64,000 bases of DNA from NCBI GenBank assembly GCA_000004985.1, contig GG738851.1. One strand, written 5' to 3'. The notes below the pieces were generated by a model. The model did no database searches and was not told the DNA's origin. It saw only the letters and a list, made by a program, of their open reading frames with translations. A program made the position numbers and the translations under genes. Within the stretch, counting starts at the first letter, position 1; each line of letters begins with the position of its first letter. Below, piece by piece: positions 3,314-52,324 of this stretch. The DNA comes from Naegleria gruberi (taxonomy: Eukaryota).

Positions 3314-4975
3314 TTATTGTGTCAATACTTGCTCAACACATGAGGTACCTGCTAATCTACTAGTTATCCATGCAAGTGCAAAGTTAAAACCTCCAATTCT
3401 ACCAAAAGCATCCAAAACTTCACCACATAAGAAAAGATTTGGATGAATCTTACTTTCCATAGATGGAATATTAATTTGTGAAAGATCTACACCTCCTCCT
3501 GTAACTTCTGCCATCTTGAATCCCTTATTTCCACCAATATCTAATGGGAAACTAGTTAAATGTGAAATAATGGACCTTCTTTGGTCATTGCTTAGTCTGG
3601 AAACAAGCAAATCACTCATTGCCAAAGAATCGGTGATTAATTGGACGAGACGAATTGGTAAAAAGTTTGGTTCCGAGTTTTTGTGAATGAAATTCTTGAG
3701 AACGAGCTTGGAATTCTTTTGTTTGGCTTGTTGGAATTTTCTGTCCCATTCCTGAGCTGAGATGAGTGGAGTCCAATTCACATAGAGTTTCAATTGACAT
3801 GGTGGCTTTGCTGGTGAGTGGAAAAGTAGCCTTTCAATTTGTGATTTTTCAATGAGAGAAGAGGATTGGGGTGGATTTTCAACGAGTATATCCTTCATAC
3901 GTTGAGTTTCAAAATTGTAGAGACCTGGTATGGTTGCATGTGAAGGATTGAGACAAGCTGGGCCGGAATAACCTGTATGAGTGAAAAGGAAACCTTTTGG
4001 TTCTTCCATTTGATAGATTACCTTCCTTTCAGATCCATTTTCCAAACAAACTGTTAGAATTACATTTGGAATGGTCAATCCACTCAATTCCTTATGAATT
4101 AATTTCACTTTAGAATCTGAAACCAATGGTGTCAAGGCAGGATACATTGGCACAATGGAATGACCCAATTGAGAAAGTAACTGAACACCCACTCCATCAC
4201 TATTAATCACACTCAATCCTCCAGTTGACATGACCACTGATTTACATAAAACCGATTGGTTATCCCTATCATTATGTGAAAATTTCACATTCCATCCTCT
4301 TTCAGTTTTTTCCAATCCTTTCACATCACAATTATTCAAAATTGAAACTTTCACTCTTTCATTACTTTTATCAGTAATGCTCTTGAGAAATGCATCCAAA
4401 ACATCCTTGGCATCGTTTGATTGGGGGAAATATTTTCCAGATTCAACTTCCAATTCTAGTGGAATTTTCAATTCCTTTTCAAAGAATACTTTTTGTTGCT
4501 CAATTGGCCAAGTTTTCAATATTTGAAACAAGATATCTGGTCTACTTGAAAAGTATTTCAATTCCAAATCATTTTCCTTTTTGAAAGAAAGCCATTTGCT
4601 TTCATGTGGTATTAAATTACATCTAGAACCTCCAGACATGATGATTTTTCTTCCACATTGAGGCTTTCTTTCCAATAGTAGAATTTCAATCTTTTGATTC
4701 TTGTTTGATTTGAGGAGTGAAAGGGCTTTAGATTGAGCAAATTTAGTGCAATTTAATCCAGCAGCACCTCCTCCAACAATACAAATTCTCTTCACTTCCG
4801 ATGATGATGATAATTGTTTTGAAATGGTGAATGATTTAAAATTATTTAGAGTTGTGCAACTTGTTCCGATATTGTGCTGTTGTTGTATTAATATATTATT
4901 GAATTTTGATGTGGCAACAATTTTATGTTTCAATGAAGAACCATGCATCAATGATTGATAATTGAATTGTTTCAT
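3314..4975 (-). CDS. HI0933/YhiN-like FAD-dependent flavoprotein (BaiN/aminoacetone-oxidase family)
   Basis: Rossmann FAD motif ICIVGGGAAGLNC, family-typical MSGGSRCNL and C-terminal GEVLDAFGRIGGFNFALAW. N-terminal extension may be a targeting peptide. Confidence 0.75.
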   Translation of the reverse strand: MKQFNYQSLMHGSSLKHKIVATSKFNNILIQQQHNIGTSCTTLNNFKSFTISKQLSSSSEVKRICIVGGGAAGLNCTKFAQSKALSLLKSNKNQKIEILLLERKPQCGRKIIMSGGSRCNLIPHESKWLSFKKENDLELKYFSSRPDILFQILKTWPIEQQKVFFEKELKIPLELEVESGKYFPQSNDAKDVLDAFLKSITDKSNERVKVSILNNCDVKGLEKTERGWNVKFSHNDRDNQSVLCKSVVMSTGGLSVINSDGVGVQLLSQLGHSIVPMYPALTPLVSDSKVKLIHKELSGLTIPNVILTVCLENGSERKVIYQMEEPKGFLFTHTGYSGPACLNPSHATIPGLYNFETQRMKDILVENPPQSSSLIEKSQIERLLFHSPAKPPCQLKLYVNWTPLISAQEWDRKFQQAKQKNSKLVLKNFIHKNSEPNFLPIRLVQLITDSLAMSDLLVSRLSNDQRRSIISHLTSFPLDIGGNKGFKMAEVTGGGVDLSQINIPSMESKIHPNLFLCGEVLDAFGRIGGFNFALAWITSRLAGTSCVEQVLTQ

Positions 4976-5090
4976 TTTTTAACTTCAAAACTTTTCACAA
5001 CTCAATGATAATTGTAATGGATTTGGAATATTTGAGATTTTAGAAATTTAATTTTTTAATTTATATTTGGTTTGATTAATTTAGAGGAAC

Positions 5091-7133
5091 TTAGAATTGG
5101 AAGCGATTGAAGAGGAAACTTCTATAGTTAAAGCTTCTTGCTTCTTCTTCAGAATCGCCAGAATCATCAGAATCTTCGCTGACAGTGTGTGACTTTTGGT
5201 CAATAATAATGTCAACTGGGATGGTTGATTCTTCGCTAGTCATTCCCTCAAAGATTTTCTTCATTTCATCAGTAACAATACCGTGTTCTTCCAACAAAGA
5301 TTTGGCATCATCGTAATCACCTTCAGCTTGGATTTCCAAAACAGTTTCCAACAACTTGGTCATGGCACTTTCGAATTCGTTAGTATTAACAGCAAAAACA
5401 GTCTTTGAGCTTTCTTGGGAAACAGTGATAGCACCCTTAGCTCTCATATAGTTGAATGCAACAGCATTAGCCATAGCGTGAGCAGATTCACTGACACCAA
5501 ATCTAACACTTCTGAAAATACCAGCCAAGAATGTTGTGTAGAGGGCCTTCTTAGCAAGAACGTTAGCTGGAGCAGTAGCATCAACACTACTTAATCCGAA
5601 ATCAATAGTAGTGATATTGCTATCCATCATGTAAGACAACATCCACAATCCACCAATATCTGCCTTGAGTTCTTCAATTGGAGAGTAGTACTTGCCCAAA
5701 GCTTCACGCAAAGTCTTGCTTGTTTCAGCACCATTTTCAAAGACCTTTTGTGGACCCAAACCGTGCATCATTTCGTGGGCAAGAACTTGAGTGAAGAAGG
5801 CATTAAAGATGACAAAATTTTGTTGAGCTGATGAGATGACAAGCTTGGAAATTGGGAGGAGAATGTTATTGAACTTGGCCTTTTGAACATTCTTCAATAA
5901 AACTCTCTTAGATCCGTATTGTTCAATAATGCTTTCAGTGTTTGGCAAAGTATAAGCAACAGCCTTGATAGCACCATTGGCTTGACCACCAGCATAAATT
6001 TGATTGATAACTCTGATAGAATTGATAGCACCAACACTTCTGACTGGATATTTAGTGGTATCCATTGGCAAACCAGTTTCAATAGCTTGCAAGTTAGCCA
6101 AAACAACATTGATGAATTTGGTAGAATCAGAATCCTTATATCCAATGTAAGCTTCAAAAGCAGCCTTCAACCCCATCAATTCATCATCATAGGTTTCATA
6201 TGGGCCAATAGTAACTTCCAAAACAGAATTGCTATCAGTCATGTTCAACCAAGCAATATCGGAAAGTTCATAATTGTTTGAAGTGAAAGCATCAGCTCTG
6301 AGTTGAAGGAAGCTCTTCAAGTAAGAATCCTTTGGATTAGTCAAAAGATTGGCAGCAGCATGCAAGTACTTGACAGCCTTGGCCAACTTCTTTTCGTATT
6401 GAGTACTGTATTTAACAGGTGTCAATTTACCACTGCTTTCCTTAATGACAGTGTAAAAACTGGTTGCTTCAGCGTGAGCAGTAGAGTCCAATTCATTGAT
6501 CCATTCTTTGATTTCACTTTCAGTGACGTTTTCTGGATAGAAAGCAGCACCAGCAAGCTTCTTTTCTGGAACTTCGTGCTTTGGCTTTTCGGCAAGGAAA
6601 TCAAAAGGTTCCTTGACAAAGGATTCATCGTTACTGACTCTAACCCAAGGTCCGAAATTCAAATCAAACAAAGCCAAAGGCTTTCCATGACAGGCAGTTG
6701 GCAAAATTTCAGCTCTGAGGTGTGAATTTTCAGACCACATTTGATCTCTATAAATTTCTCCCATAACATCAGCAGCTTTCTTTAATTGAGTGATAACAGC
6801 ACTGTATTCTGTGGAAATTTGTGTATAAGATGTTGTTTGTTCCAATACGACAGTACTATACTTATTCAAGTGGTCTTGCACTTCTCCACATCCCAGTTCG
6901 GTTATAAACAAAACAGCAGCAAAAGCACAGAAACCTCCCAAAATTAACAAAATAATCAACAAGATGATGATAGCACCAATGTGATTTAAACACTTGAATT
7001 TAGAGAGAAATTTTTCACCAATAGTTTTTGTTGCTCTTACTGGATCTTCCAAATTTTCAAGGCTTGATGCTCTTGTTGTATCATTACCAGTTTCCTGGAG
7101 TTCAAAATCTTCTTCCTCCAATCGATGAGACAT
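5091..7133 (-). CDS. Peptidase family M49 (dipeptidyl-peptidase III-like) zinc metallopeptidase with N-terminal transmembrane anchor
   Basis: Zinc motif HEMMHG and a downstream EELKAD(…GGLW) (M49-like HExxGH…EExRAE). Hydrophobic segment IIILLIILLILGGFCAFAAVLFI near the N-terminus. Confidence 0.6.
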   Translation of the reverse strand: MSHRLEEEDFELQETGNDTTRASSLENLEDPVRATKTIGEKFLSKFKCLNHIGAIIILLIILLILGGFCAFAAVLFITELGCGEVQDHLNKYSTVVLEQTTSYTQISTEYSAVITQLKKAADVMGEIYRDQMWSENSHLRAEILPTACHGKPLALFDLNFGPWVRVSNDESFVKEPFDFLAEKPKHEVPEKKLAGAAFYPENVTESEIKEWINELDSTAHAEATSFYTVIKESSGKLTPVKYSTQYEKKLAKAVKYLHAAANLLTNPKDSYLKSFLQLRADAFTSNNYELSDIAWLNMTDSNSVLEVTIGPYETYDDELMGLKAAFEAYIGYKDSDSTKFINVVLANLQAIETGLPMDTTKYPVRSVGAINSIRVINQIYAGGQANGAIKAVAYTLPNTESIIEQYGSKRVLLKNVQKAKFNNILLPISKLVISSAQQNFVIFNAFFTQVLAHEMMHGLGPQKVFENGAETSKTLREALGKYYSPIEELKADIGGLWMLSYMMDSNITTIDFGLSSVDATAPANVLAKKALYTTFLAGIFRSVRFGVSESAHAMANAVAFNYMRAKGAITVSQESSKTVFAVNTNEFESAMTKLLETVLEIQAEGDYDDAKSLLEEHGIVTDEMKKIFEGMTSEESTIPVDIIIDQKSHTVSEDSDDSGDSEEEARSFNYRSFLFNRFQF

Positions 7134-7777
7134 TTTCGCAGCAAATATTTTTCTCGGCTATTAGGAACACAAAGCTGATGATGATGAAAAATATTATTTG
7201 TATCGTTATCGCGCTCACGATGTATTTATATTTTTTTTTAAAGCAATTAAAAAATCATTTCAATTATTTATTAATTCTACCGATAATGCCAACAGCGGTT
7301 CGCTATTCTTGTCCATGTTGCCAAAATTATCTAGCCCTAGCAGAGCTTCGTAAACGTTGATTTTCTGCTGCTGCATATTGGTACTGACCATGCTGGTTAG
7401 AGATAATGGAATGAGCATCCAATTGCTAATAATAATTCATGGCGTAATCTGTGAAATAATTATAGAGAAGGCACTGTTGGATGGATAGCACATTAGAGTG
7501 ATGATTGATACTTGGTGAGGTTTTATTTTGGATATTGAGGAGAATTTGAACGATTTTCGAAACTGAAAAACAAATGTTTGTTTAAAAGGTTTATTTTTGG
7601 AAAAAAAGATTAAATTGACTGGATTGAACCATTATTGATCATTTATTAATGTTATCTACAGTAAAGATTCTAATATTAAGAATGAAAATAATTGAGTATT
7701 TAAATTATTAAGCCAATTTTTCAATATTTTCTTAATTTTCTCAATTTTCATTTAAATTTTTAAATTTTAAAAAAAAT

Positions 7778-9547
7778 ATGAACAGCTCCTCCATTATTAC
7801 ATCCTTTGATAATTTATTTCCTCTCGATCAGAGAGCGGAAGTCAAGCAAAAATTGGCTTACGGAACAGCCGGATTTAGAATGAAGGCAGATTCTATTCTT
7901 GATAGAGTTGTTTTCACTGTCGGATTGTTGGCTTGTTTGAGAGCATTGGATAAGAAGGAATCTGTTGGTGTGATGATTACTGCTAGTCACAATGGAGCAC
8001 AAGATAATGGTGTAAAATTGGTAGATCCTACAGGTGAAATGTTAGAATCTACTTGGGAAGAAAAAGCTGTTCGTTTGGCTAATTGTATTCATGACGCCAA
8101 GTTGATGAGCGAAAAATTTGATGAATTGGTTTCGGAATTGAAATTGGATTTAACTAAACCAATCGGAAAGACTTTGTGCATTTCTGTTGCAAAGGATACT
8201 AGAACTAGTAGTGATAGATTGGTTTCAAGCTTGAAAACAGCTGTTTCTCTCTTTGAAAATTTAGGAATTGTTCACGTGGATTATGGACTCATGATTACTC
8301 CACAACTTCACTATATGGTCATGTTGACTAATCATCATGAGGAAACTAAATCATTCCTTGTCAATACTCAATTCTCATCACCACAAGAAAGACAACAAGT
8401 AGTTCAAGAAACTCTTGTTAAGAATGAAAGTATTTATTATCAAGATATTTCCAATGCTTTCAATTTATTATACAGAGGAGGTGAAAAGGAAATTACTATG
8501 GATTGTGCATTTGGAGTTGGAGGAAAGAAAATCAAACAATTACAATCAAGTTTAAAGGATGTTAAATTTACTCTTGTCAATGATTATGAAACTGTAGGAG
8601 TTGAGGAATCACAAAAATATCTTAATCATGATTGTGGTGCTGAACATGTTCAAAAGCAAAAGGCTGTTCCAATCAATTGTGAAAATTTCAAGAGTGTTGC
8701 CAGTATTGATGGAGATGGTGACAGACTTGTTTATTTCTTTAGAGATGAACAAAATGAATTGGTCTTGTTGGATGGTGATAAGATTGCCACTCTCTTGGTT
8801 AAATTTATTGGTGAATTGTTGACCAAGACTGGACTTTTGGATCAATTAATTGTTGGTGTTGTTCAAACAGCATATGCTAATGGTTCAAGCACAACCTATT
8901 TGAAGCAAATTCTTGGAGAACAACGTATTTTCTGTGTTCCAACTGGTGTCAAATACCTCCATCATAAGGCTAAAGAACTCGATGTTGGTATTTATTTTGA
9001 AGCTAATGGACATGGTACTGTTATTTTCTCAGAAAAGGCCAATAAGGCAATTAATGAAATGTACAATAGAAGCACCACACAAGGAGGTGAAAGTAGTGAA
9101 TTTGTTCAAGCCATCTCTGACTTGTTTGCCCTCACCAAGTTGATTAATCCAACAGTTGGTGATGCTTTCAGTGATTTACTCGTTGTTGAAGTTGTTTTGG
9201 GTTATTACGGCTGGAGTTATGTAGATTGGGATAAGAATCTCTATACTGATGTTCCAAGTGTTCAAGACAAGTTAAAGGTCAAGGACAGAACTATTATTAA
9301 GGTTTCAGCAGACGAAACTCAAGTTGTTTCTCCAGAAGGTATTCAAAACAAGATCAATGAATGTGTTTTAAAGGTCAATAAGGGTCGTGCTTTTATTCGT
9401 CCAAGTGGTACTGAGGACGTTGTGAGAGTTTATGCTGAAGCAGAAACCAAGGAAGAAGCCAAAGAATTGGCAATTGACGTATTACACATAATCTACAATG
9501 ATTTGAATGGAACAGAACAACCACCAGCCAAATCATCAAAACTCTAA
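7778..9547 (+). CDS. AGM1: Phosphoacetylglucosamine mutase (AGM1/PGM3)
   Basis: GTAGFRMKA…, active-site region GVMITASHN…NGVK, alpha-D-phosphohexomutase domain order. 589 aa, single exon. Confidence 0.85.
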   Translation: MNSSSIITSFDNLFPLDQRAEVKQKLAYGTAGFRMKADSILDRVVFTVGLLACLRALDKKESVGVMITASHNGAQDNGVKLVDPTGEMLESTWEEKAVRLANCIHDAKLMSEKFDELVSELKLDLTKPIGKTLCISVAKDTRTSSDRLVSSLKTAVSLFENLGIVHVDYGLMITPQLHYMVMLTNHHEETKSFLVNTQFSSPQERQQVVQETLVKNESIYYQDISNAFNLLYRGGEKEITMDCAFGVGGKKIKQLQSSLKDVKFTLVNDYETVGVEESQKYLNHDCGAEHVQKQKAVPINCENFKSVASIDGDGDRLVYFFRDEQNELVLLDGDKIATLLVKFIGELLTKTGLLDQLIVGVVQTAYANGSSTTYLKQILGEQRIFCVPTGVKYLHHKAKELDVGIYFEANGHGTVIFSEKANKAINEMYNRSTTQGGESSEFVQAISDLFALTKLINPTVGDAFSDLLVVEVVLGYYGWSYVDWDKNLYTDVPSVQDKLKVKDRTIIKVSADETQVVSPEGIQNKINECVLKVNKGRAFIRPSGTEDVVRVYAEAETKEEAKELAIDVLHIIYNDLNGTEQPPAKSSKL

Positions 9548-9555
9548 ATAATATA

Positions 9556-10338
9556 CTAATTTTCTTCGCTTACTTCGTCCTTCCAAAAATTCTTGTAATT
9601 CTCAGGAATATCAGTAATTTGCAGTAACAAATTTGGGTGATGAGCAAAAACTTCCTTTATCACCTTTACTTTTCCATTTAAAGTCCAATAAGAGAAGGCA
9701 TAAAAGAGTTTTGGATACTTTTCGAAAAAGTTTCTATAGGTTATTCTTACTTGCTCCGTATGATTATTCTTCTTTTGTGTAAGAAATTTGTGATTAATTT
9801 GAATATGTTTCTTATTTTCAGATAATTCGTCTAAATTTTCCAATTCCTCTAGTGTGGGAAGTTCCGATTTGGCCACTTCCTCCATTTTGGCTTTCCACTC
9901 ATTAAATAATTCAAGATTTTTGATTGGTGGAGGTTCTTTCTTTTTCTTTGCAGGCTTTTCAAAATCTGTTGATGATGATTCAGAGTTGATTTTCCTCTTT
10001 GACTTGTCCGATGATCGTGTTACAGCTTTTGAATTGCTTGACTCATTCTCGATCAAAAGTTCAAGTTTTTCAACAAGTTGTTTCGCAGATTCAGCAGAAA
10101 TAGTTTTAAATATTAATTCATAAACCTTTTCAGGCTCTATATTACATTTCAATGCCAAATTCAAGCCTTTTGCATTGTAATCGGGTGAAGGCTTTCCATT
10201 CGGTTGTGCATTCTCATTCGAATTACTACTCGATTCACGACCTGAACCAACACTACTACTTGCACCACTATTATTGGGAGTAAATAAATCCACTGCTGAT
10301 GAAGATGAACCCGATGCAATTGGCAAAAAGAAATCCAT
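9556..10338 (-). CDS. Hypothetical Ser-rich/charged protein
   Basis: 260-aa ORF with low-complexity Ser/Lys/Glu regions. No confident domain. Confidence 0.4.
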   Translation of the reverse strand: MDFFLPIASGSSSSAVDLFTPNNSGASSSVGSGRESSSNSNENAQPNGKPSPDYNAKGLNLALKCNIEPEKVYELIFKTISAESAKQLVEKLELLIENESSNSKAVTRSSDKSKRKINSESSSTDFEKPAKKKKEPPPIKNLELFNEWKAKMEEVAKSELPTLEELENLDELSENKKHIQINHKFLTQKKNNHTEQVRITYRNFFEKYPKLFYAFSYWTLNGKVKVIKEVFAHHPNLLLQITDIPENYKNFWKDEVSEEN

Positions 10339-13544: not shown

Positions 13545-13617
13545 GCCCGTCTAGCTCAGTCGGTAGAGCGCAAGGCTCTTAACCTTGTGGTCGTGGGTTC
13601 GACCCCCACGGTGGGCG
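13545..13617 (+). tRNA. tRNA-Lys (anticodon CTT)
   Basis: 73-nt cloverleaf: acceptor GCCCGTC/GGTGGGC (two G-U wobbles), D-arm GCTCAGTCGGTAGAGC, anticodon stem CAAGG/CCTTG with loop CTCTTAA, T-arm GTGGGTTCGACCCCCAC. Confidence 0.9.
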
Positions 13618-17654: not shown

Positions 17655-17728
17655 GCCTTCCTAGCTCAGTTGGCAGTAGCGCTGTCCTAGTAAGACAGAG
17701 GTCTTGGGTTCGATTCCCAAGGGAGGCA
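17655..17728 (+). tRNA. tRNA-Thr (anticodon AGT)
   Basis: 74-nt cloverleaf: acceptor GCCTTCC/GGGAGGC (one G-U), anticodon stem CTGTC/GACAG with loop CTAGTAA, T-arm TTGGGTTCGATTCCCAA. One D-stem mismatch. Confidence 0.75.
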
Positions 17729-17746: not shown

Positions 17747-18826
17747 TTATTTTAATTCATCCCTAACAAACACCTTAATTTGATGATTTTCACAATCTGA
17801 AATAAATACAGAACCATTTCTCCTATCAGAGCAAAATCCAGTGATACAATCAAACGAGAAAGGATCATCCTTACCAAATTTTCCAAATGATTTCACCACA
17901 AGTCCACTATCAATATTTAAAACTGAAATTCTATGATTTCCTTCATCTCCAATCAATACATTTCTACTCTCCTTATCAAGTAAAAGATGAGAGTGATTAT
18001 TTACATCAGCATTCAGAGTTTTCAAGAGTGTAAAACTGTCACTTTCATCTTCCGAGACAAGTAGTAGAGATTTTTTGAAACCTATCAAGATTGTACCACG
18101 ATTCTCATCCATTGTAATTGCAAATGGTTCAAGCATTGAGTTAATTTCAATTTCTAGAGTGAGTGGATGGAAAACCTTGATGGAGGATATGGTTTTCACA
18201 AGAGTTCCATCAGAAGCTTTCATAATTACAATACGATCATTGAACCGATCGCACACGTATATAAAATTCCCTTCCTTTCCATATCGAATGGCCAATCCCT
18301 GTGGATCTTTAAACATTTTCTGTGAAAACCACAAAAGCTGAGCTAGGGGCAAATTGGAATTGACATGATTCAATTTCATTTTCATAATTGCATCCATACT
18401 CCCACTCACAAAGAGATTATCTGAATTCTCCTCTTCCTCCACCAATAAATAGAATGGATTCAAACCAGGTGTAACCAAAGCATTGATATATTCCAGTGTA
18501 TCCAAATTAAAAAACACAATTCTCCTATTCTCAGCATCGGTGACGATAATTAATTGAGTTCGATATGAAATTTTCACATCACAAGGAAAGGTGAAATTGC
18601 AATTGAGGCAAGTTTTGTATTTGATTGAATCATCAACAAGACATGGCTGAAATGTAGTGGTTTTACGTGGACACTTCAATTTTTCATGAATCATCATCAT
18701 GGCAGGATTAGAGGAAACATCTTCCGATGACTGATTAATAATAATGAAATCATGTAAAATTAATTTTACACAATTATTTGCAATTTTTCTAATTTTTGAT
18801 GGTTTTTCGTAAAGTGTTTCTTCCAT
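17747..18826 (-). CDS. NHL-repeat protein with N-terminal Cys-rich (B-box-like) region
   Basis: NHL-like blades (GLAIRYGKEGNFIYVCDRFNDRIVIM; VLIGDEGNHRISVLN; VFISDCENHQIKVF). N-terminal CPRKTTTFQPCLVDDSIKYKTCLNCNFTFPC. Confidence 0.6.
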   Translation of the reverse strand: MEETLYEKPSKIRKIANNCVKLILHDFIIINQSSEDVSSNPAMMMIHEKLKCPRKTTTFQPCLVDDSIKYKTCLNCNFTFPCDVKISYRTQLIIVTDAENRRIVFFNLDTLEYINALVTPGLNPFYLLVEEEENSDNLFVSGSMDAIMKMKLNHVNSNLPLAQLLWFSQKMFKDPQGLAIRYGKEGNFIYVCDRFNDRIVIMKASDGTLVKTISSIKVFHPLTLEIEINSMLEPFAITMDENRGTILIGFKKSLLLVSEDESDSFTLLKTLNADVNNHSHLLLDKESRNVLIGDEGNHRISVLNIDSGLVVKSFGKFGKDDPFSFDCITGFCSDRRNGSVFISDCENHQIKVFVRDELK

Positions 18827-19912: not shown

Positions 19913-20923
19913 TTAGAAAACAACTAGGTTGTTGTGGATTTGATAGGTTTCAGCGAGAATGTATGTGAATTTGGAAGTATCGGTCAAGTTGACAGCATGA
20001 ACATACATTGTACATGTTCTGGTGTGTGTTGATACACATTGGTATTGGATGTATCGAATGACCTCTTCTTTAGTGTTTTGACCAGTGTATTCCTTGAAAT
20101 AATCACTAAATGGATGGTGTTCCAGTAATTGAGCCAGTTCATCAGTTTTTGTAAGGAAAATTACAAAGCTGGAAAATAGTTCAGACTTTTTTAGGTTTTC
20201 AAATGTATCAATGGCCAACTGGAGACAATTTGTATTGTGTACCGTATCATGTAACACATAATCAGCCAATGAAATGAAATAATAGACCACGTCCACATTT
20301 TCAAATTGAGTAATCCATTTTCTTGGCTCTCCTCTCATATCACTGGGGTCAATAAATCTGAAATTAAAACCTCCCTTGATATCAATCTCTTTGATGGATG
20401 AGGAGGTTCTTGGAATTTTCACTCGATACATGTCGTTTAATTCAAATTTCATCTGAGAATTATTTTCCAATTTTGCAATAAACTCCTCACTGAAGAAATA
20501 CTTAATATTATTCAAATATCTCATATGAAAAGATGCTTCCAATAAAAATTCATTCTCTCCTTCTCTGACATATCTTATAAATTTAATCAGATCATTAGAA
20601 ATTGTCCTCAATCGAATATCTTTTCGTATAGTTTCTTTCAGCTTTTCGAATTGATTTGGTAACCGATTCTTTAACAATTCATAACAAACCAAAATACATC
20701 TAAACACAAATTCCATCACCCACCTATCCAATTTCACTCCTATCGACAGCAACCATTCAATATCATTATTGACACGCAGAAAATTGCAAAAAGTTGATTT
20801 TCCAGAATTTGTTCCTCCAAGAATGAGAAATCTCTTGCTGATTTGATTTTTGGAAAATTCATCGTGTATGATTAGCTGTTCCGAGATTTGTTTATCTTTT
20901 TGTCTTTCTTTTCGTCTGGCCAT
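19913..20923 (-). CDS. Divergent heterotrimeric G-protein alpha-subunit-like protein (catalytic motifs degenerate)
   Basis: P-loop LILGGTNSGKST (canonical LLLGAGESGKST). Switch II DVGGQR is replaced by DPSDMRGEPRKW, NKxD by TKTD, and TCATDT by TCTMYVHAVNLTD. Confidence 0.6.
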   Translation of the reverse strand: MARRKERQKDKQISEQLIIHDEFSKNQISKRFLILGGTNSGKSTFCNFLRVNNDIEWLLSIGVKLDRWVMEFVFRCILVCYELLKNRLPNQFEKLKETIRKDIRLRTISNDLIKFIRYVREGENEFLLEASFHMRYLNNIKYFFSEEFIAKLENNSQMKFELNDMYRVKIPRTSSSIKEIDIKGGFNFRFIDPSDMRGEPRKWITQFENVDVVYYFISLADYVLHDTVHNTNCLQLAIDTFENLKKSELFSSFVIFLTKTDELAQLLEHHPFSDYFKEYTGQNTKEEVIRYIQYQCVSTHTRTCTMYVHAVNLTDTSKFTYILAETYQIHNNLVVF

Positions 20924-21036: not shown

Positions 21037-24000
21037 TTACTCCATTTTAATTTCACAAACTACAATATCTTGTTTATGTGAAGATAATCTGATGGTAGAC
21101 ATTTGACGTTGCTCATTTGGTCTCATGTAGTTCAAGAAAAAGGTACACAGTACACTAGTGCCACCTGTCAAGTTTTGAGAATGATTTGAAAAGTAGTTTG
21201 TGGTTGCCTTGTAAATTCCTGCTGGTGCAACCTTAATCATGTATTCCTCAGGTCCGTAACCATTTCTGAAATCTCTACTGACTGTAATTGATTATTAGTA
21301 CAATGAATATTATAATACTTACCATAACCTCCGATAGCTGTTCTATTGTGGGCATAATATGCGTGCTCTCCTCCTTTATCAGCAGGTTCTTGAACATGCA
21401 AGTCCTTAATGATGTTTAAATTAATAAATTTTAGTATTGACCAATGCCAGTAAAAAAATACTTACAATATCTACTTGGTCAGTGTCCCATGCCATGCTTA
21501 TTCTAATATCTAAATCAAAGTGATGAATGAAACGTGGGTCAATAATTGGTAAATCAGGTTGTTTGAGTAAGAGATGGTTCATCTCAGTGGCAGCTGTCAT
21601 TTCAATTTCATCAAAACGCATGTCCCATTTTCCAGTAATGACCTTATTGAATAATTGCATAGACTCTTCATATTTTCCTAATCTTTCCTTCACCAGAGCC
21701 AAATCTCTATAAGATTGAGGTTCGTGAGGTGCAATCTTTTTCACTTTTTCGAATAGCCACTCAGATAATTCTAATGCATCGGCTTGATCCAATCTGTAGG
21801 CAACAATACGATACAATTGAATATTTTCCAATTCCAATTCACAAATATTTGATAGAATTCTCACACCCAATTTGAAATCCTTGACACTTGAAAGGAAATA
21901 ATCAGCAACATCGAGATAGAAAGCTGGGGAGTCTTTGTAACTCTTTCTTTGTTTCAAATATTCCTTATATGGGTTGGAGGATTTGGCAATTTCTTTACAA
22001 TAGCTGGCGTCAGGACTCCATGCCTTGATTGAGATTGATCCAGAGGCACTTTCAGATGTGCTCTTAGCCTCTGACTTCTTTTCCTTCTTGTCCTTCTTTC
22101 TGTCTTCTCCACCACCTCCACTTGAACTCTCAGATCTTCGCTTGCTGAGGCTGAGTCCTAATGAAATACCACCCTTCTTTTTGGATTTCTTACCACATGA
22201 TCGAAACTCAGCAGCTTCTTCTCTGAGACACAAGTCATCGGATTCTAAGCGTTCAAATTGAGGAGCACTACCAGCAAACTCTTCCTCACATTCATCTTTA
22301 CACAAGTCCTGTTTTTGTGATGCATTTCTTGGAGTAAAATCACGATTGTGCCAATTAACTCTTTCTTTCCACATGGAAAGAATTCTTTCAATTTTATCCT
22401 TTTCTCTTTTTTCCTCAGACTCTTTTTCATTCTTCTTCATTTCAGAATATTGCTTGTAAACATTTGCAAGAGTTTGCGGAGGTACAATGTCATGTTTCAA
22501 GTATTGATCCAAAGTTTCCAAAACGAGTAAGGTAGAATCTTCAGTGACAATTCTAAAATCTTGTCCAATCTTTTTAATTTCATCCTTGAAAAGATGAGGG
22601 AAAGCTGAGAGAGAATCAATCTTTTGTTGAGCCCATAGTAATGGCAAAACAGCAGCTTCACATTGTTCCAAATTGACTGGCAATTCCAATTCTTGAACGT
22701 GATAAATAGAGGAACCGAATCTGAAAGAAACTGCTATCTTTACACTTTCCTTTCCACTATTCTTGAATTTACCAAACAGTTTGAAAACTTCTCCTTCTTT
22801 GAGACTAACTGGTTCATTTGGATACACCTCTTCCAGATCAGAATCTTCAAAATCAGCAACAGCAAATGAGAGAACTGGTTTTCCAATTGACTTGACTAAG
22901 TCAACCTCAGTTAATTCATTGGAATTCAAATAAACACCTCCGCTCTTTGTAGCAATATGTTTAAGAAGAGGTGAATTGACAATATTTCCGCAAGTGACAA
23001 AATAAATTGGTTTCTCAAAGTTTGCCAATGGACTAATCTCATGTCCAAATGTATGAACACCATCAGTAAAGGCAATACAATAATCAACTGACTTGTTAAG
23101 CAAATCCTTATCAAATAGTAACATGTTGGAACCACCATCATAATATAGTTCATCTTTGACAAATTTCAAAACTTCTGCAACAGATGTAAAATCCACAGAT
23201 TGAATAACATCAGCACTGAAAGCAGATAATGAAATTGAAGTTGGAGCAATACCTTCAAGGATCACCTTCAAGGTCTTCAAGTTCTTTTCATGTAGTGACT
23301 GGTTACTATTGGAACAATCCCAAACAATTTGAATTTTGCTTCCAATTCTACTCATTTCTCTCAATTCTGTAGATAATTGAGGAACTGGAATAGATGTCAT
23401 GAAATAGCCATTTTCAGAAGCTAATAAAATATCCCTAACATCTTCTGATTGTTTTGTAACAGCCAATTTAAATCCGGTCATATTTTCATTGAGTTCTGAC
23501 TTTTTCAATTCGAAATATCCTGTTCTTGAGCTGGCATTCTTACTTGTCCACAACAGTTTATCTTCAACTGATTGGGTTTCAGCATTGGCAACACCCATCA
23601 ACACTTCAGTTTCAAATCCTTGTAATGAAGTTTGATTGAGTGTAAATTCAATCTTGGTATCATCTCTCAATGCACCAAAATTCAAGTATGACATTGGAAC
23701 CCAAGCACTTCCTCTAATCTTTCCCTTTTGTGAATCATTACTCTTTTCAATAATTTCATTCAACATCATTTGATATTTGACTTGAATAGTCTTATCCTTA
23801 TTATAAGGCAATGGATAAACACGAGTTTTGAATGAATTGGATTGAGAAACCTTCTCAACCATTGACACCTTATTTCCAGCTCTAACTTCAGCTTCAAAAA
23901 CTTCCTTTGCCTTTTCTTTTGGAACTGGGACAGCATCAATCAATTGACCATCAACTTCCATTGCATAACCTATCAAAGTAGCACCATCAGGCATTGGTAA

Positions 24001-24333
24001 CAACAATTCTCCTTCAATAGTTTTCTGATTTTGATTACAAAATGTCATGGTAGAAACCACCTGAACAATCGGATAGGTCACATGACATTGCACCCGATGT
24101 GAAACTAATGGCAATAACGTTGATGCTTTATCAGAATATTCTCCTGTTGCCAATTTCACGCTGGTAAATTGATCAAGATCCAGAAAGTGCAAACTCTTTG
24201 GAATGCTTCCAATCAGAGAGGCAGAATTTTTCGGATCCACGACAACTTTTTTATCATTGCTTGGAGTTGATTCGAGTTGTGAAAGTTCATCATCAACGGC
24301 TTTATTCTTGCTTCCGAAAAATTTGCCAAACAT
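21037..24333 (-). CDS. VIT + von Willebrand factor A domain protein, at least 3 exons (24333-21466, 21404-21323, 21281-21037)
   Basis: N-terminal VIT-like region, central vWA, C-terminal TPR-like helices. The main ORF ends …VDI at a GTAAGT donor. Two further small exons (introns 61 and 41 nt) continue in frame to the stop (…MIKVAPAGIYKA…EIKME). Confidence 0.65.
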
Positions 24334-27165: not shown

Positions 27166-30100
27166 TTACATCACAATGAAGGCACTCAAGAACACAACAA
27201 GCATCAATAATAGTTGTGATGAATGACTTTTCATACCAGTTGTGACATTCAATCTGACTGAACGAGCGGCTACTCCACTAACATGTCCATTAATATTCTT
27301 TGATGTTGAAGGAGTTGTAACAAATTCACAATTTGATCCAAATGCATTCTTCAAAGTACATTGACAAGTTTCAGGAGCAATACATTGACCTCTTGATGAA
27401 CAAACACTTGCATCAGTACTCTTAACTCCCTTACAATTGAATGATTCACAATTTGATCCATAGTATCCATTCTTGCAAGTACAATTATTTGGTTTGGAAC
27501 ATGTACCATTTCCAGAACAAACTGAATTATCTGAATATAATTGACCAAAACAATTGAACAATTGACAATTGTTTCCATAATATCCATTGTCACAGGAACA
27601 ATTATTTGGTTTGGAACAAGTACCGTGGGATGAACATACTGAGGATTGGTCACTTCCAATACCGTTACAATCAAACTTGCCACATGAAGCTCCATAATAT
27701 CCATTATCACATGAGCAATTATTTGGTTTTGGACAGGAACCATGTGAAGAACAAACAGATGAATTGGCACTGTTCACACCAAAACAATCAAACTTATCAC
27801 ATGCAGCTCCATAATATCCTTCCTTGCAAGTACAATTATTGAAATCCAAACATTGACCATTTCCTGAGCAGACACTTTGTGAATTCTTCAAAGTTCCAAA
27901 ACAATCGAATTCTTCACAATTAGCTCCATAATAACCAAGAGAGCATGTACAGTTATTATATGAAGAACAGATGCCATGACCAGAACAAACATTGGCTTGA
28001 GATTTGAGAATTGAATTACAAGTGAAATCTTCACACTTGCTTCCATTATAACCAGCAAAACATGAACATTGATCCAGTCCTAGGCAATAACCATGACCAG
28101 AACATCCCTTAGTTTCATCAGCAATACCAAAACATTCATTCACACAATAACTCTTGAAACTATTCAGTTTGCCTTTAACGCAATAAGGTGTTAACTTGTT
28201 AACAAATTTGGGTGTTGTGTAGAAAAATTCTCCTTTTCTATTTCTCATGACATAGGAGTAGTATAAATCTGGTACTGAATCCAATTTCAATTCTTCTAAT
28301 TTTCCTGTATACTTGTTTAGTTTGAGCAATGCTGAAAGGCCATAAAGAGTGATAATAATTTCACCCTCTGGTGTTTGAAGAATAGTTTGAACATCACGAA
28401 CTGATGTTTCATTGGCTGGTAAATTATATTCAGGATAACCTCTTGTGTAATTACCAACAATATTCGTAATAATTCCATTGGAAATTTTGAAAATTCTATT
28501 GTTGCCAATATCAGGAACCAACAAGACATCTTCTGACACAACACTGAAAGATTGGGCAGTGAATAGTGCTTGATTTGCAGGAATACCGCTTTCAATTCTA
28601 TTTCCAAGACCTGCAATGGTTGTAACAATTCCAGTTGACTTGGTGATTTTTCTAATTCTTGAAGAACCTTCCAAAATATAGAGATTTCCCTTCTCATCTG
28701 TGTCCATATAAACCACTTCTCCAAAATAGGCATTTTCAGCCTTTAAGCCATCTCCAAATCCACCTATTAATGTTGAAATGGTTGCATTCTCTTGATCAAC
28801 TGAAACATATTTGATATTGTTAATATTGGTTGGATCATCCACATTGGAGAAATACAAGTTTCTTCCCTTCATTAACATCAAGGTTGGGAAAATAGCAGCA
28901 TCAACAGCTCTCATTCCATCTCCAAAGAAACCATTAGTTCCATTACCAGCAAATAACACATTTTGACCTTGTGGAGTAATCTTTCTAACTTGGTAATTCC
29001 CAGTGGAAACATAAAAATCTCCAGTCAATGTATCAAATTCCAATCCCCCTACGTTATCAGTTGCTGATCCAGGAACAGAAGAAACTGTATTATTGTAAAG
29101 CTTTCTAATTCTTTGATTGTAGGGATCAGCAAAATAAATGGCATCCAATGAATTTTCTGAACGTACAACAAGAGCCAATGGATTGATATTTGCTTCAAGG
29201 GCAGGTATTTCCATATCAATGTTTTGCTCATAAATTTGTCCAGTACCAGCAATAATAGAAACTTGATTAGTGAGCTTGTCAATCTTCTTGATCAAATTCC
29301 AATCGGTCACATAGATGGCATCTCCAGAAGGTGATTCTGTCAAGAATATAGGTGAAACAACATCAATATTAGGTGGAACCTCGGATGATGGAATCCCATT
29401 TCCTGAAACTGTGGTGATTGTGCCATTAATTCCAAAAACCTTTCTAACTCTATTATTACCTAAATCGGCAATCCAAAGATCACCATTTGAATCAACAATA
29501 GCATGTGAAGGATTGTTCAATGTTGCTTCAGTTGCTAAACCACCATCTCCTGTAAATCCAACAGTGCCATTTCCTGCAATAATTACAACCATATTACTAT
29601 CTTTAGAAATCTTTCTAATAGTGTGATGTTTGTAATCAGCAATGTAAATTTCATCTTGATAGACAGATAAACCAACATATCTACCACCAAATATTGGATT
29701 CAGAGTATTGTTCAATAATGTATTAGTGCTTGTACTAATTTTTGCGTTTAACTTGGAAATTTCATTAAACTTTGCAATGGAACTTCTTCTAAATTCAGTG
29801 GATCCCTCAATTCCACCATAAAACACATCATTGCTCAATGACTTGTCAATTGCAATAGTTTTAATACGTTCGATAGCTCCAGGTAAGAAAACACTCTTCT
29901 CTAGACTATTGATCTTGTACATAAAGTTGGCATCAAGACTTCCAAAGTACATTTCATCGCTCTTTGAAAGAGTTGCAACTGTATCAACGACACTCAATTG
30001 TTTAGGATCCAGACCATCAATTGGAATTGGTACATTTTTTCCACTTCCAGCAATGGTTTGAATTGTGTTAGTTTGTGGACTGATTTTCTTAATGGAGTAA

Positions 30101-31062
30101 CTCAAACTGAATGTAATGGAATTGTCGCTGTAATCCATTACAATGGCAGTACCACCACTAACTTGAAAATCAGATACCAAAACTCCATCACTACCTGAAA
30201 TAGAACCAGACATGCCTGTAACCTCATTAGTTTCCAAATTATACTTGTAAAGAAAACTGTCAGATAACATGTAGAACTCATTATTGGAAACTTGCAAGAA
30301 ATCTTTAGCATAATAATAATCATTCTTTTTCATGTAAATGGTAGAATCAGAAATCAACCACAAACCAGACATTGTTCCAGTTCCATAAAGAACAATTCTT
30401 CCATCATTTGCCAAACTAAAAGCTGTCAACAGAAGTTGACATGAGAGAGCATTGCTACCATCATAACATGGATTTGTATAAAACAAACCACTGCTACTAC
30501 CAAACACTTGAGTTAAAGCAAGAGTTGTCATGTTAAATATGAATATTTTGTGTTGTTGTTGATAAGTTGTTGTTCTGATGGCAATATCTCCATTACCATT
30601 GATAGAACAACCACCTTCATTGCCATAGGATGAATCTGTTTTAGAAAAGAGTAGTGTTGTTGTGGCTGTTACATTGTCGAGTTTGTAGATGGCAATTTGT
30701 GGAAAAACAACACTGACAATGTACAGATTCTCAGAACTCTTATCATATAACAAACAGCTGACAGAGGTAGAGTGTGAATAAAACTTTTCAACTGTGCCAG
30801 TTTGTTTGGAAATTTTACGAATTGGTTGATAGTTATTGTATGTGAAAATATCACCAGCTGATGTAATGGTATAATGAGCATAACTAACAAGAGTGTTCAG
30901 AGCTGGGTAGCCAGAACCATCGTCATTACCACCTGCATAGACAGAAGTATTGTAAAAAGTTGGATAAACAACATTGTCTGGCAAGGTGGTTGCTTCTTGT
31001 TGCATGGATTGACCAGCAACAAGCAAGAACAAGAATAGACAAAACAATAACTTGTTTCTCAT
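27166..31062 (-). CDS. Large surface protein: signal peptide, NHL/beta-propeller repeats, about 8 tenascin-type EGF repeats, C-terminal transmembrane segment
   Basis: N-terminal MRNKLLFCLFLFLLVAGQS. Repeated CSGHGxC…NNCTCxxGYYGxxCExFxCxG units at the C-terminus. Terminal hydrophobic LLLMLVVFLSAFIVM. 1298 aa, single exon. Confidence 0.75.
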   Translation of the reverse strand: MRNKLLFCLFLFLLVAGQSMQQEATTLPDNVVYPTFYNTSVYAGGNDDGSGYPALNTLVSYAHYTITSAGDIFTYNNYQPIRKISKQTGTVEKFYSHSTSVSCLLYDKSSENLYIVSVVFPQIAIYKLDNVTATTTLLFSKTDSSYGNEGGCSINGNGDIAIRTTTYQQQHKIFIFNMTTLALTQVFGSSSGLFYTNPCYDGSNALSCQLLLTAFSLANDGRIVLYGTGTMSGLWLISDSTIYMKKNDYYYAKDFLQVSNNEFYMLSDSFLYKYNLETNEVTGMSGSISGSDGVLVSDFQVSGGTAIVMDYSDNSITFSLSYSIKKISPQTNTIQTIAGSGKNVPIPIDGLDPKQLSVVDTVATLSKSDEMYFGSLDANFMYKINSLEKSVFLPGAIERIKTIAIDKSLSNDVFYGGIEGSTEFRRSSIAKFNEISKLNAKISTSTNTLLNNTLNPIFGGRYVGLSVYQDEIYIADYKHHTIRKISKDSNMVVIIAGNGTVGFTGDGGLATEATLNNPSHAIVDSNGDLWIADLGNNRVRKVFGINGTITTVSGNGIPSSEVPPNIDVVSPIFLTESPSGDAIYVTDWNLIKKIDKLTNQVSIIAGTGQIYEQNIDMEIPALEANINPLALVVRSENSLDAIYFADPYNQRIRKLYNNTVSSVPGSATDNVGGLEFDTLTGDFYVSTGNYQVRKITPQGQNVLFAGNGTNGFFGDGMRAVDAAIFPTLMLMKGRNLYFSNVDDPTNINNIKYVSVDQENATISTLIGGFGDGLKAENAYFGEVVYMDTDEKGNLYILEGSSRIRKITKSTGIVTTIAGLGNRIESGIPANQALFTAQSFSVVSEDVLLVPDIGNNRIFKISNGIITNIVGNYTRGYPEYNLPANETSVRDVQTILQTPEGEIIITLYGLSALLKLNKYTGKLEELKLDSVPDLYYSYVMRNRKGEFFYTTPKFVNKLTPYCVKGKLNSFKSYCVNECFGIADETKGCSGHGYCLGLDQCSCFAGYNGSKCEDFTCNSILKSQANVCSGHGICSSYNNCTCSLGYYGANCEEFDCFGTLKNSQSVCSGNGQCLDFNNCTCKEGYYGAACDKFDCFGVNSANSSVCSSHGSCPKPNNCSCDNGYYGASCGKFDCNGIGSDQSSVCSSHGTCSKPNNCSCDNGYYGNNCQLFNCFGQLYSDNSVCSGNGTCSKPNNCTCKNGYYGSNCESFNCKGVKSTDASVCSSRGQCIAPETCQCTLKNAFGSNCEFVTTPSTSKNINGHVSGVAARSVRLNVTTGMKSHSSQLLLMLVVFLSAFIVM

Positions 31063-42330: not shown

Positions 42331-43146
42331 ATGGTGTTTCGTCTCTTCTCAAAGATTAGAACAGTTGATGCTAATGATGACCTTTCAACTGTTTCAGAAC
42401 AACACAAAGAAGAATCTAACGTTACAGTGGGGGTAGTTTCCGATACAGTTTCACCATTAAAAAATACGAAACATTCTCTCAAAATAGTAGACAAATTAAA
42501 TAGGGACGAATTATTAATTGTTGGATGTTTTCTAAATACTTCCGAGCTAGCAAATCTTGCTTCATGTAATCAACAATTACTGGAATTATTCTTTAATTTG
42601 ACAATTGACAAGGTCAATTTAATAGCAAAGAGGAAAAAAAAATTCTCAAGTATGAACATGGATTCAAGAATTGTTTCAATCAAGGATGTGTACCAAGAGA
42701 ATGATGAATTATTCTCAACAACTCAAACAATAATTTGGAAACCACTTGTTCTACATTATTTTCCAAGTTATTCGAAATCTCTGAATGTGAAAAATTGGAT
42801 GCACGTATTAAGGAGAAGATTCACACACCTTCAGATACACATGCCAAGATCCAAAAACCAAAACCAAATTCAAATAATTGACAGTAGTGATAAATACAAA
42901 AGGGAATTCGTTGAAGGTTGCGAATGGGAATACGAATGTCCACTCAAAATCACCTCAATGACTTACATTTCCGAGGAAAAGGTATTTTGCAATGTCTGTA
43001 AGGAGAATATTTACAAAGTTCACAATCAAACCGATTTGAAGTATCACACCGAACAAGGACATTGTGTCATTCTAACTGAAAAAAAACATGTTAAAATTGG
43101 AAAGACATATAATCCTGATTATCATGAACTTCCTGCTGTTCGTTAA
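42331..43146 (+). CDS. F-box-like protein with C-terminal Cys/His-rich region
   Basis: F-box-like LNRDELLIVGCFLNTSELANLASCNQQLL. C-terminal CEWEYECP…CNVCKEN…H…H. Confidence 0.45.
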   Translation: MVFRLFSKIRTVDANDDLSTVSEQHKEESNVTVGVVSDTVSPLKNTKHSLKIVDKLNRDELLIVGCFLNTSELANLASCNQQLLELFFNLTIDKVNLIAKRKKKFSSMNMDSRIVSIKDVYQENDELFSTTQTIIWKPLVLHYFPSYSKSLNVKNWMHVLRRRFTHLQIHMPRSKNQNQIQIIDSSDKYKREFVEGCEWEYECPLKITSMTYISEEKVFCNVCKENIYKVHNQTDLKYHTEQGHCVILTEKKHVKIGKTYNPDYHELPAVR

Positions 43147-51163: not shown

Positions 51164-52324
51164 TTATTTCTTTCTCTTTTTAATACCACGCATGAATGAA
51201 CCGAAAATCTTATCGTTTACAATGAATGACTTGTCAGTGGTTGGTGGCACATCTATAAGAGATGGTAAATCGTCAATACTCTCATCGTCATCATGTAATT
51301 CTGTCGTGGTAACTGGATTGAAAACTTTTGATGAGCTAGAATTCTTCTTTGGTTTGCTGGCTGGTAAACCTGATGTATCGAAACGTTCAGGAGATGTGAA
51401 TTTAAAAGCAAAGCCTTCTGTATTCTTTCTCTCTTTTGATGTATTTTGAGTTGATGGTTTGGTTTCTTTTGTTTCTTTTGTTTCTTTGGTTATATCCATT
51501 CTTGCTATGTATCGTACAACATCCTCCAAGAACTCGTGTAATATTAAATTATCAAATCCAATGAGTACAGTATCGAGAATATTGTAAAATACTGCTTGTC
51601 TGCAGTGTGTACAAACAATTGGTTTCATTTCAGATGTATCTGTGAGAGCTCTGTAAGTTCCTAAAAGAAGAATGGCAATAATCAAATAGTATGATATTGT
51701 TGGGAAAAATCCTTGAAAATTATATTTCCTTCCTGAAGCAATAATGTCAAATAAAATAAAACTCTGAATTGGAATATCCAAAAATAACAAAAGTGGAAAG
51801 GTGAAATAAGATCCAAACCATCCATTAAACATGTAAGTAAAATATCCAAATACACTCAAATTGGCACAATCCATCACTGAGAATGCATCAGGATAAACAC
51901 TCTTTGTATCATTTCCTGCACTATTCCATATATTGGAAACAAAAGGCTTCAAGTGCACAGAGTACAAAACATTAAATCCTTGGTCTTTTTCTGCAAGTGG
52001 TTTATAATTATAGTCCACTCCATAAATCCAGCCCAAATAAACAGCCGATAAAATGTAGACCAGCACTACTCGTTTCCAATTTGCTCCGATAACCCTTCCA
52101 CTTATTAAAGTTAGAGAATAATAAAAATCGTAGGCTAGCATCAACAAGGAGGAGTATTCGTTTCCATCACTATTTTCACACTTTTTCATTTCATCATTGA
52201 TCCACTTTTTATCTCTCCCATACAAGATATCATTAGGAAAAACAAAAGAATTTTGCTGCATTACTACTGGTGTGGCTTCAGCGTTTGTTGTGTGATTATT
52301 TTTTTGTATTTTTAGAAGTTCCAC
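51164..52324 (-). CDS. Multi-pass transmembrane protein of unknown function with Lys/Ser-rich C-terminal tail
   Basis: Several hydrophobic segments (…VVLVYILSAVYLGWIYG…, …FTFPLLLFLDIPIQSFILF…, …ISYYLIIAILLLGTY…). C-terminal KETKETKETK repeats. Confidence 0.4.
   Translation of the reverse strand: MELLKIQKNNHTTNAEATPVVMQQNSFVFPNDILYGRDKKWINDEMKKCENSDGNEYSSLLMLAYDFYYSLTLISGRVIGANWKRVVLVYILSAVYLGWIYGVDYNYKPLAEKDQGFNVLYSVHLKPFVSNIWNSAGNDTKSVYPDAFSVMDCANLSVFGYFTYMFNGWFGSYFTFPLLLFLDIPIQSFILFDIIASGRKYNFQGFFPTISYYLIIAILLLGTYRALTDTSEMKPIVCTHCRQAVFYNILDTVLIGFDNLILHEFLEDVVRYIARMDITKETKETKETKPSTQNTSKERKNTEGFAFKFTSPERFDTSGLPASKPKKNSSSSKVFNPVTTTELHDDDESIDDLPSLIDVPPTTDKSFIVNDKIFGSFMRGIKKRKK

Follow-up and report, generated by a model that had tools for sequence, protein, structure and literature searches.

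Several heterotrimeric G-protein alpha subunits depart from the canonical nucleotide cycle. The plant extra-large G proteins (XLGs) have degenerate motifs and very low affinity for guanosine triphosphate (GTP), and they bind G-beta-gamma and regulator of G-protein signalling (RGS) proteins in a nucleotide-independent manner (PMC8584482). An engineered dominant-negative Gi1 with the substitutions S47C/G202T/G203A/E245A/A326S favours the nucleotide-free state and prevents G-beta-gamma dissociation (PMC9794833). Naegleria gruberi has 44 G-alphas according to the same review that describes the XLGs (PMC8584482), and the part of that review that cites Anantharaman et al. (2011, Gene 475:63) reports deviant catalytic motifs and lost N-terminal tethering residues in some Dictyostelium, Naegleria, and plant G-alphas. 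Degenerate G-alphas in Naegleria are, then, already in the literature. The gene described here, NAEGRDRAFT_63704 (XP_002681248.1, UniProt D2V4F2), is a further uncharacterised example. It lies at positions 19913-20923 of a 64,000-nucleotide stretch of N. gruberi contig GG738851.1 (the window). By sequence its product qualifies as a pseudo-GTPase, as the fold is kept and Arg178, Gln204, Gly203, and Gly42 are all substituted. The reading preferred here, with a probability of roughly 0.6, is a pseudo-GTPase that does not cycle and that serves as a binding partner whatever the nucleotide state.

An Intact Gene for a Full-Length G-alpha Fold

The locus holds a genuine N. gruberi gene that is intact and has no introns. 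Its open reading frame (ORF) on the minus strand runs uninterrupted from ATG to TAA (336 codons plus the TAA, 336 amino acids), and the translation is 100% identical to an N. gruberi database entry labelled only "predicted protein". With the window's 34% G+C, a stop should turn up about once per 14 codons. A run of 336 codons free of stops has a probability of 1.3e-11 at this base composition, and each of 20000 shuffled versions of the ORF was interrupted.

A recognizable P-loop and an overall G-alpha layout had been noticed in a first-pass annotation made from the sequence alone, and both are borne out. Pfam PF00503 (G-alpha) matches end to end with an E value of 4.5e-35 and 121.8 bits, where the cut-off is 48.8; the match spans residues 9-326 of the protein and positions 3-329 of the 333 in the profile. 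By sequence (phmmer against the PDB) the closest solved structures are alpha subunits of the Gt/Gi, Go, and Gi types, with E values down to 1.7e-19. Structure prediction, which had been proposed as a check, gives a confident G-alpha fold when AlphaFold2 is supplied with an 87-sequence alignment (predicted local distance difference test, pLDDT, 91; predicted template modelling score, pTM, 0.86); a single-sequence run gave a model too poor for use (pLDDT 37), and the alignment-based model was used instead. In this model a helix at the N-terminus is followed by a Ras-like core into which a helical domain is inserted. The top Foldseek matches in the PDB are all G-alpha chains, with template modelling (TM) scores of 0.75-0.83 to Gi alpha over 317-353 aligned columns, and the G203A/A326S Gi heterotrimer 5tdh is among them. 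NAEGRDRAFT_63704 is on these grounds a full-length G-alpha-fold protein with both a Ras-like and a helical domain.

The features of the gene are listed below. Reference residue numbers throughout are those of human GNAI1; numbers of the window protein are given separately and are used for residue ranges in the list.

19913..20923, minus strand: complete single-exon coding sequence of the G-alpha-like protein NAEGRDRAFT_63704 (ORF list, translation, database identity, Pfam, AlphaFold2, Foldseek)
20846..20923, minus strand: N-terminal helix, residues 1-26, beginning MARRKERQKDKQISEQL; basic; AlphaFold2 helix 2-26
20792..20818, minus strand: G1/P-loop GGTNSGKST, residues 36-44; GNAI1 counterpart GAGESGKST (alignments)
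20432..20791, minus strand: all-helical insert domain, about residues 45-164 (AlphaFold2 helices 42-53 through 146-153; full-length Foldseek alignments)
20387..20425, minus strand: switch I, RVKIPRTSSSIKE, residues 167-179; GNAI1 counterpart RTRVKTTGIVE (MAFFT and profile alignment)
20315..20350, minus strand: G3/switch II, DPSDMRGEPRKW, residues 192-203, DNA GACCCCAGTGATATGAGAGGAGAGCCAAGAAAATGG; GNAI1 counterpart DVGGQRSERKKW (three alignments)
20141..20152, minus strand: G4 TKTD, residues 258-261; GNAI1 counterpart NKKD (alignments)
19979..19996, minus strand: G5 region AVNLTD, residues 310-315; HAVNLTDT aligned to HFTCATDT (alignments)
19916..19978, minus strand: alpha-5 helix and C-terminus, residues 316-336, ending IHNNLVVF (alignment; AlphaFold2 helix 316-330)

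Both ends of the protein differ from the usual pattern. The N-terminus (MARRKERQKDK...) has no Gly2 and its first Cys is residue 46, so it offers no site for N-myristoylation or N-terminal palmitoylation; canonical G-alpha representatives in the alignment start MG..C. At the other end the alpha-5 NNL motif is retained and is followed by a tail of three residues, compared with six in GNAI1 (KDCGLF). The last three residues have pLDDT below 50 in the model.

Motif States, Residue by Residue

Motifs were called from three independent alignments: phmmer alignments to Gt/Gi chains of the PDB, a MAFFT alignment of 87 G-alphas with human GNAI1, and a hidden Markov model (HMM) built from 72 canonical representatives. 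The four strings quoted in the first-pass annotation all occur in the translation, namely FLILGGTNSGKST (residues 32-44), FIDPSDMRGEPRKW (190-203), FLTKTD (256-261), and TCTMYVHAVNLTD (303-315).

The replacement of DVGGQR in switch II, with Met in place of the catalytic Gln, holds in every alignment: DPSDMR stands opposite DVGGQR, gap-free, in all three, and no Gln or other catalytic residue comes to position 204 after gap adjustment in any of them. The individual substitutions are Val201 to Pro, Gly202 to Ser194, Gly203 to Asp195, Gln204 to Met196, and Arg208 to Pro200, and the residues kept are Asp200 (Asp192 of the window protein), Glu207, Lys210, and Trp211. The region downstream is altered as well, with Glu245 of alpha-3 replaced by Leu236 and a switch III that is about three residues shorter and lacks Glu236.

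The P-loop keeps its GxxxxGK[ST] core, including Lys46 and Ser47 (Lys42 and Ser43 of the window protein), and has two changes within it, Gly42 to Thr38 and Glu43 to Asn39. In switch I the arginine-finger position is occupied by Lys (Arg178 to Lys169), a call on which the MAFFT and HMM alignments concur. Two extra residues lengthen the loop, and posterior support inside it is low in the HMM alignment. Gly183 is replaced by Ser176, Ile184 (Ile177) and Glu186 (Glu179) are retained, and the RxxTxGI pattern that places the Mg-binding Thr is absent, the nearby Thr and Ser residues being out of register.

The guanine-contacting motifs are changed in part. The G4 motif does read TKTD, ungapped opposite NKKD in the three alignments: Asn269, an Asn in 77 of the 88 sequences compared, becomes Thr, and Lys270 (Lys259) and Asp272 (Asp261) are retained, the latter invariant in 88 of 88. 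The G5 motif TCATD becomes VNLTD (Thr324 to Val, Cys325 to Asn, Ala326 to Leu313). The loss of TCATDT had been noted correctly; its register had been misplaced, as the true equivalent is VNLTD and the "TCT" used as an anchor seven residues upstream is a coincidence.

Taken over the whole protein, 25 of the 46 highly conserved columns (those with at least 80% conservation in 83 other G-alpha representatives) are kept, compared with a median of 43. Judged by sequence against the features of the family, the PF00503 match, the two-domain fold, and the P-loop are present, whereas switch I, G3, G4, G5, and the lipidation signals deviate. Aligning the protein to PF00503 and reading the motif columns, as had been proposed, confirms the substitutions. 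The earlier expectation that the protein probably cannot hydrolyse GTP now has a stronger case than was stated, since Arg178, Gly203, Gly42, Arg208, and Glu245 are replaced in addition to Gln204.

A Divergent Five-Member Clade

HMMER, run exhaustively against 1.84 billion representatives, returned only four proteins clearly closer to the window protein than generic G-alphas are:

P0003: N. gruberi NAEGRDRAFT_72962, 38% identity to the window protein
P0002: Naegleria lovaniensis C9374_010133, 34% identity
P0004 and P0005: one shared metagenome sample, 28-29% identity

These four and the window protein are monophyletic in 300 of 300 neighbour-joining bootstraps. Sequence comparison describes the clade as small, old, and strongly divergent, known so far from Naegleria and one metagenomic eukaryote only. 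Its members are about 26-35% identical to one another, which argues that the clade is old; even so, its genes have stayed open in N. gruberi, where there are two copies, and in N. lovaniensis.

Much of the degeneration is common property. Arg178, Asn269, and Ala326 are missing in all five members, and the substitutions that run through the clade are Arg178 to Lys or Gln, D[PT][SN] at the start of G3, Asn269 to Thr, Thr324 to Val or Leu, and Ala326 to Leu, Met, or Ile. Arg242, Glu245, and Gly2 are also lost throughout, and switch III is shortened. Loss of Gly203 is confined to the three Naegleria proteins; both metagenomic members retain this residue. The residues retained across the clade are Asp200, Glu207, Lys210, Phe215, Ile184, Glu186, and the G4 Asp (Asp272). 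A GxxxSGK[ST] loop is found in all four members whose N-terminal part is in the clade alignment, and the fifth has GMHGSGKTT in an upstream ORF.

That fifth member is P0005, whose gene (792-1804 of metagenomic sequence L002) is broken by a one-base frame change near 1005-1015. The upstream ORF (L002 792-1025) holds the missing N-terminus with its P-loop. The frame change may come from misassembly, or the frameshift may be real and the gene a pseudogene in the source organism.

The limits of the clade were probed in several ways. The N. lovaniensis locus (Sec3, REJ, and others) and the window (NHL, DUF4396, VIT) have no common neighbour, so orthology of P0002 is not supported and this protein may be a paralogue rather than an orthologue. 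A word-indexed homologue search, which returned almost only its queries, turned up nothing in N. fowleri that corresponds to the N. lovaniensis relative. A scan of metagenome contigs with the clade alignment found no new members, only ordinary G-alphas of at most 31% identity.

An agaric G-alpha, P0014 (Crepidotus variabilis KAF9524152.1), carries the three motif variants of the Naegleria clade, as DPSGQR, TKMD, and VNVCD. Kinship was rejected despite these motifs, as the two group together in 0 of 300 bootstraps, and the resemblance is apparently one of convergence or long-branch similarity.

Degenerate G-alphas also occur among the top representatives found from agaric fungi, Lithocolla, scyphozoan jellyfish (DVGGMR), Filamoeba, Polysphondylium, Anaeramoeba, and Echinamoeba, and loss of catalytic motifs therefore appears recurrent. 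The jellyfish case is a cluster of 18 members (P0025; Rhopilema, Sanderia, and other scyphozoan assemblies) of a Gi-like G-alpha with the same Gln to Met change. It is otherwise canonical (NKND, TCAFD) and is conserved across several scyphozoan genomes.

Proposed Function and Mechanism

The pattern of kept and lost residues suggests a protein that has parted with the cycle while preserving portions of the nucleotide site. What remains is the core that binds phosphate (Lys and Ser of the P-loop with Asp200) and, in G4, the Lys and Asp that specify guanine. All the elements of hydrolysis and of the GTP switch are gone: Arg178, Gln204, Gly203, Gly42, and the triad of Gly203, Arg208, and Glu245. 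Base binding is weakened at Asn269, Cys325, and Ala326.

Single mutations in better known proteins indicate what such losses may mean. In Gi1, G42V is GTPase-deficient, G42R is unable to reach the active state, and Glu43 pairs with the arginine finger (PMC9283941). Replacement of the G3 Gln by Leu yields a hydrolysis-dead alpha subunit (PMC8584482). By analogy with Gi alpha-1 or Ras, every residue lost here is one at which a single mutation is known to abolish hydrolysis or activation, and from these correspondences we infer that catalysis and switching are lost. The protein would not be turned off by hydrolysis, nor by RGS proteins, of which it would not be a substrate, given Gly183 to Ser. 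That replacement is the classical RGS-insensitive change in the G-alpha family. The canonical GTP conformation, in which GTP orders switch II, would be out of reach.

Nucleotide binding calls for a more cautious statement. The first-pass suggestion that the protein may not bind guanine nucleotides conventionally is half supported, as the base contacts are weakened and, against the suggestion, Lys42 and Ser43 of the P-loop, Asp192, and the G4 residues Lys259 and Asp261 (window-protein numbers) are kept, the last at a position that is Asp in all 88 sequences compared. Because these five residues persist across a clade of about 30% identity, contact with phosphate and guanine appears to be still partly under selection, and nucleotide may be bound weakly or statically rather than not at all. 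The protein is probably either nucleotide-free or in such a weakly and statically bound state.

A protein that neither cycles nor switches is proposed, for that reason, to act through nucleotide-state-independent protein-protein binding. The likeliest partner surface would be the retained switch I/II face (Ile184, Glu186, Glu207, Lys210, Trp211, and Phe215), which is the best conserved surface of the protein and which in canonical G-alphas serves G-beta-gamma and effectors. The mode of action may resemble that of a natural dominant-negative or XLG-like alpha subunit. A scaffold or dominant-regulator role, as first suggested, is a reasonable conjecture; naming any binding partner, G-beta-gamma included, is speculative.

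Several observations weigh against this reading. The kept P-loop and G4 Asp could equally mean tight GTP binding in a permanently "on" state, as in Rnd-type GTPases. The lengthened switch I carries Arg167, Arg172, Thr173, and Ser174-176 (window-protein numbers), which are possible substitutes for the finger or the Mg ligand. The retained switch II residues are also structural, and their conservation is no proof of G-beta-gamma binding. A search for orthologues with the same substitutions, proposed at the outset, found none with Gln to Met: the other four clade members keep Gln204, and Met196 is specific to this gene. Finally, NAEGRDRAFT_63704 is named in no paper in the literature searched.

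Alternative Explanations

One alternative, which the evidence refutes, is an artefact, either a mis-modelled gene with an unrecognized intron or sequencing errors that mask a normal DVGGQR. Introns do occur in neighbouring genes, as the VIT-domain gene next to this one seems to extend through 21037-21420, and nothing of the kind supports the case at switch II. Here the sequence aligns ungapped and continuously to G-alpha profiles, the other two frames are stop-rich and encode no G-alpha-like peptide, and tblastn with eight G-alphas matches the frame of the ORF only, which together rule out a hidden intron or alternative frame that would restore DVGGQR. Sequencing error is rejected because the differences are many and multi-base and because relatives have them too: turning ATG (Met) into a Gln codon would take two base changes, more than 20 conserved positions deviate, and in the MAFFT alignment the relatives carry the same DPS..., TKxD, and VNL changes. 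It is also unlikely, at somewhat longer odds than the active switch considered below, that the gene has lost its function, as a duplicate which arose in the large expansion of N. gruberi G-alphas, died recently, and has yet to acquire a stop codon. In favour of this, switch II has degenerated further in this protein than in any other clade member, Gln204 is missing from it alone, no orthologue with the same changes was found in the same or a sister species (the N. lovaniensis relative being 34% identical and non-syntenic), and redundancy is plausible in a genome reported to have 44 G-alpha genes. Against this stand an open frame of 336 codons in 34% GC DNA, with a chance probability of about 1e-11, and a long divergence (about 30% identity to the nearest relatives) without one stop or frameshift. 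The core structural residues are kept, AlphaFold2 predicts a well-packed fold, and the clade as a whole persists across species.

A functional protein could, on the other hand, be an active GTPase switch that works by non-canonical chemistry, with catalytic residues supplied by the enlarged switch I (Arg167 and Arg172 of the window protein) or by a GTPase-activating protein (GAP) in trans, and with a Thr or Ser of the loop ligating Mg2+. There is precedent in Rap, for which RapGAP supplies the catalytic Asn in trans. The retention of Lys42, Ser43, Asp192, Lys259, and Asp261 (window-protein numbers) is consistent with an active switch, as are the extra Arg, Thr, and Ser residues in a switch I whose alignment is uncertain. 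Several otherwise canonical representatives, for example P0008 and P0009, have Lys at 178 followed by x-Arg-Thr-Thr-Gly, and Naegleria species encode very large RGS families (PMC9283941). These points are set against the chemistry of the site: Gly203 to Asp sets a carboxylate where a backbone amide must bind the gamma-phosphate, and Gly42 to Thr, Gln204 to Met, Arg208 to Pro, and Glu245 to Leu each fall at a position at which one mutation is enough to abolish hydrolysis or activation of Gi1. RGS domains, moreover, donate no catalytic residues, and Gly183 to Ser is of the RGS-insensitive type. An active switch is accordingly thought improbable, and the non-cycling pseudo-GTPase remains the preferred description.

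Genomic Surroundings

The neighbours of the gene in the window are unrelated, ordinary eukaryotic genes, among them NHL-repeat, DUF4396 membrane, VIT-domain, Kelch, BTB, and teneurin-like NHL/EGF genes, metabolic enzymes, and kinases. No RGS, G-beta, G-gamma, or seven-transmembrane gene lies within the 64 kb, and an operon-like signalling context was ruled out for lack of any G-protein partner gene over that distance.

One neighbour is a VIT-domain ORF of 970 amino acids (21421-24333, minus strand) that ends in an apparent intron. Short AT-rich interruptions resembling gt...ag introns lie near 21260-21320 and 21400-21470, with coding-like ORFs at 21237-21401 and 21037-21240 beyond. The VIT-domain gene probably has further 3' exons that abut the start of the G-alpha-like gene.

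An NHL-repeat gene (17747-18826) lies two genes from the G-alpha-like gene. In the metagenomic sequence L002, the main ORF of P0005 (1037-1804) is 2.3 kb from a 1315-amino-acid teneurin-like NHL and EGF gene (4135-8082), which is 27% identical over about 1000 residues (E 1e-59) to a 1298-amino-acid NHL and EGF ORF of the window (27166-31062). The proximity of NHL and G-alpha genes in the two places could be a remnant of linkage or chance in an expanded family.

Two transfer RNA (tRNA) genes were found:

13545-13617: tRNA-Lys(CTT)
17655-17728: tRNA-Thr(AGT), 19 bases from the 3' end of the NHL-repeat ORF

Four long ORFs have no Pfam match at E<=1e-5, at 52383-55436 (1017 amino acids), 51164-52324 (386), 42331-43146 (271), and 9556-10338 (260), and are uncharacterised Naegleria proteins.

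Comparison with Known Systems

The interest of the locus lies partly in its host. N. gruberi has what is reportedly the largest known G-alpha repertoire, in a lineage remote from animals, fungi, and plants, and its relative N. fowleri, a lethal pathogen, has G-protein pathways that are under study as drug targets. The gain is incremental, because degenerate Naegleria G-alphas have already been published and the results presented here rest on sequence inference. A naturally non-cycling G-alpha, if that is what the protein is, would nevertheless mean that nucleotide-independent alpha subunits evolved more than once.

The comparison with canonical G-alphas (Gi alpha-1 and N. fowleri G-alpha 1-13) separates what the window protein has kept from what it has lost. 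It has the same two-domain fold, length, and order of G1 to G5, and it has in common with them GxxxxGKS[T], Asp200, the switch II pattern ...E.RKW...F, the G4 Lys and Asp, and the NNL of alpha-5. In contrast to them, it lacks Arg178, Gly203, Gln204, Gly42, Gly183, Arg208, Glu245, Asn269, Cys325, and Ala326, has a shortened switch III without Glu236 and no Gly2/Cys3 lipidation, and retains 25 of 46 conserved columns.

The dominant-negative Gi1 offers a second point of reference. Four of its five engineered positions are substituted naturally in the window protein, where Ser194, Asp195, Leu236, and Leu313 correspond to 202, 203, 245, and 326. The window protein differs in that it keeps Ser47 and also lacks Gln204, Arg178, Asn269, and the lipid anchor. 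If the non-cycling reading is true, the protein would be a natural experiment on which positions can change without loss of the fold and the partner surfaces, and four of these positions are the ones mutated to make Gi dominant-negative.

A broader, more tentative proposal, possible and at present doubtful, is that the five-member clade is an independent Discoba invention of nucleotide-independent G-alpha signalling, a set of naturally "dominant-negative" subunits that permanently hold G-beta-gamma or another switch II ligand. If so, the clade would buffer or re-route the signalling of the roughly 40 canonical G-alphas of N. gruberi, and it would form a parallel to the plant XLGs without their N-terminal extension, with the window protein as its most extreme member.

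Plant XLG1-3 are the best functional analogy for the window protein, being likewise derived from G-alpha and degenerate in both nucleotide-binding and catalytic motifs. The architectures are distinct. XLGs are found in plants only and carry at the N-terminus a long extension that bears a Cys-rich region and a nuclear localization signal, whereas the window protein is 336 residues long, has its G-alpha domain from residue 9, and has no extension. It groups only with its own clade and is thus an analogue of the XLGs with an independent origin, not a member of that family.

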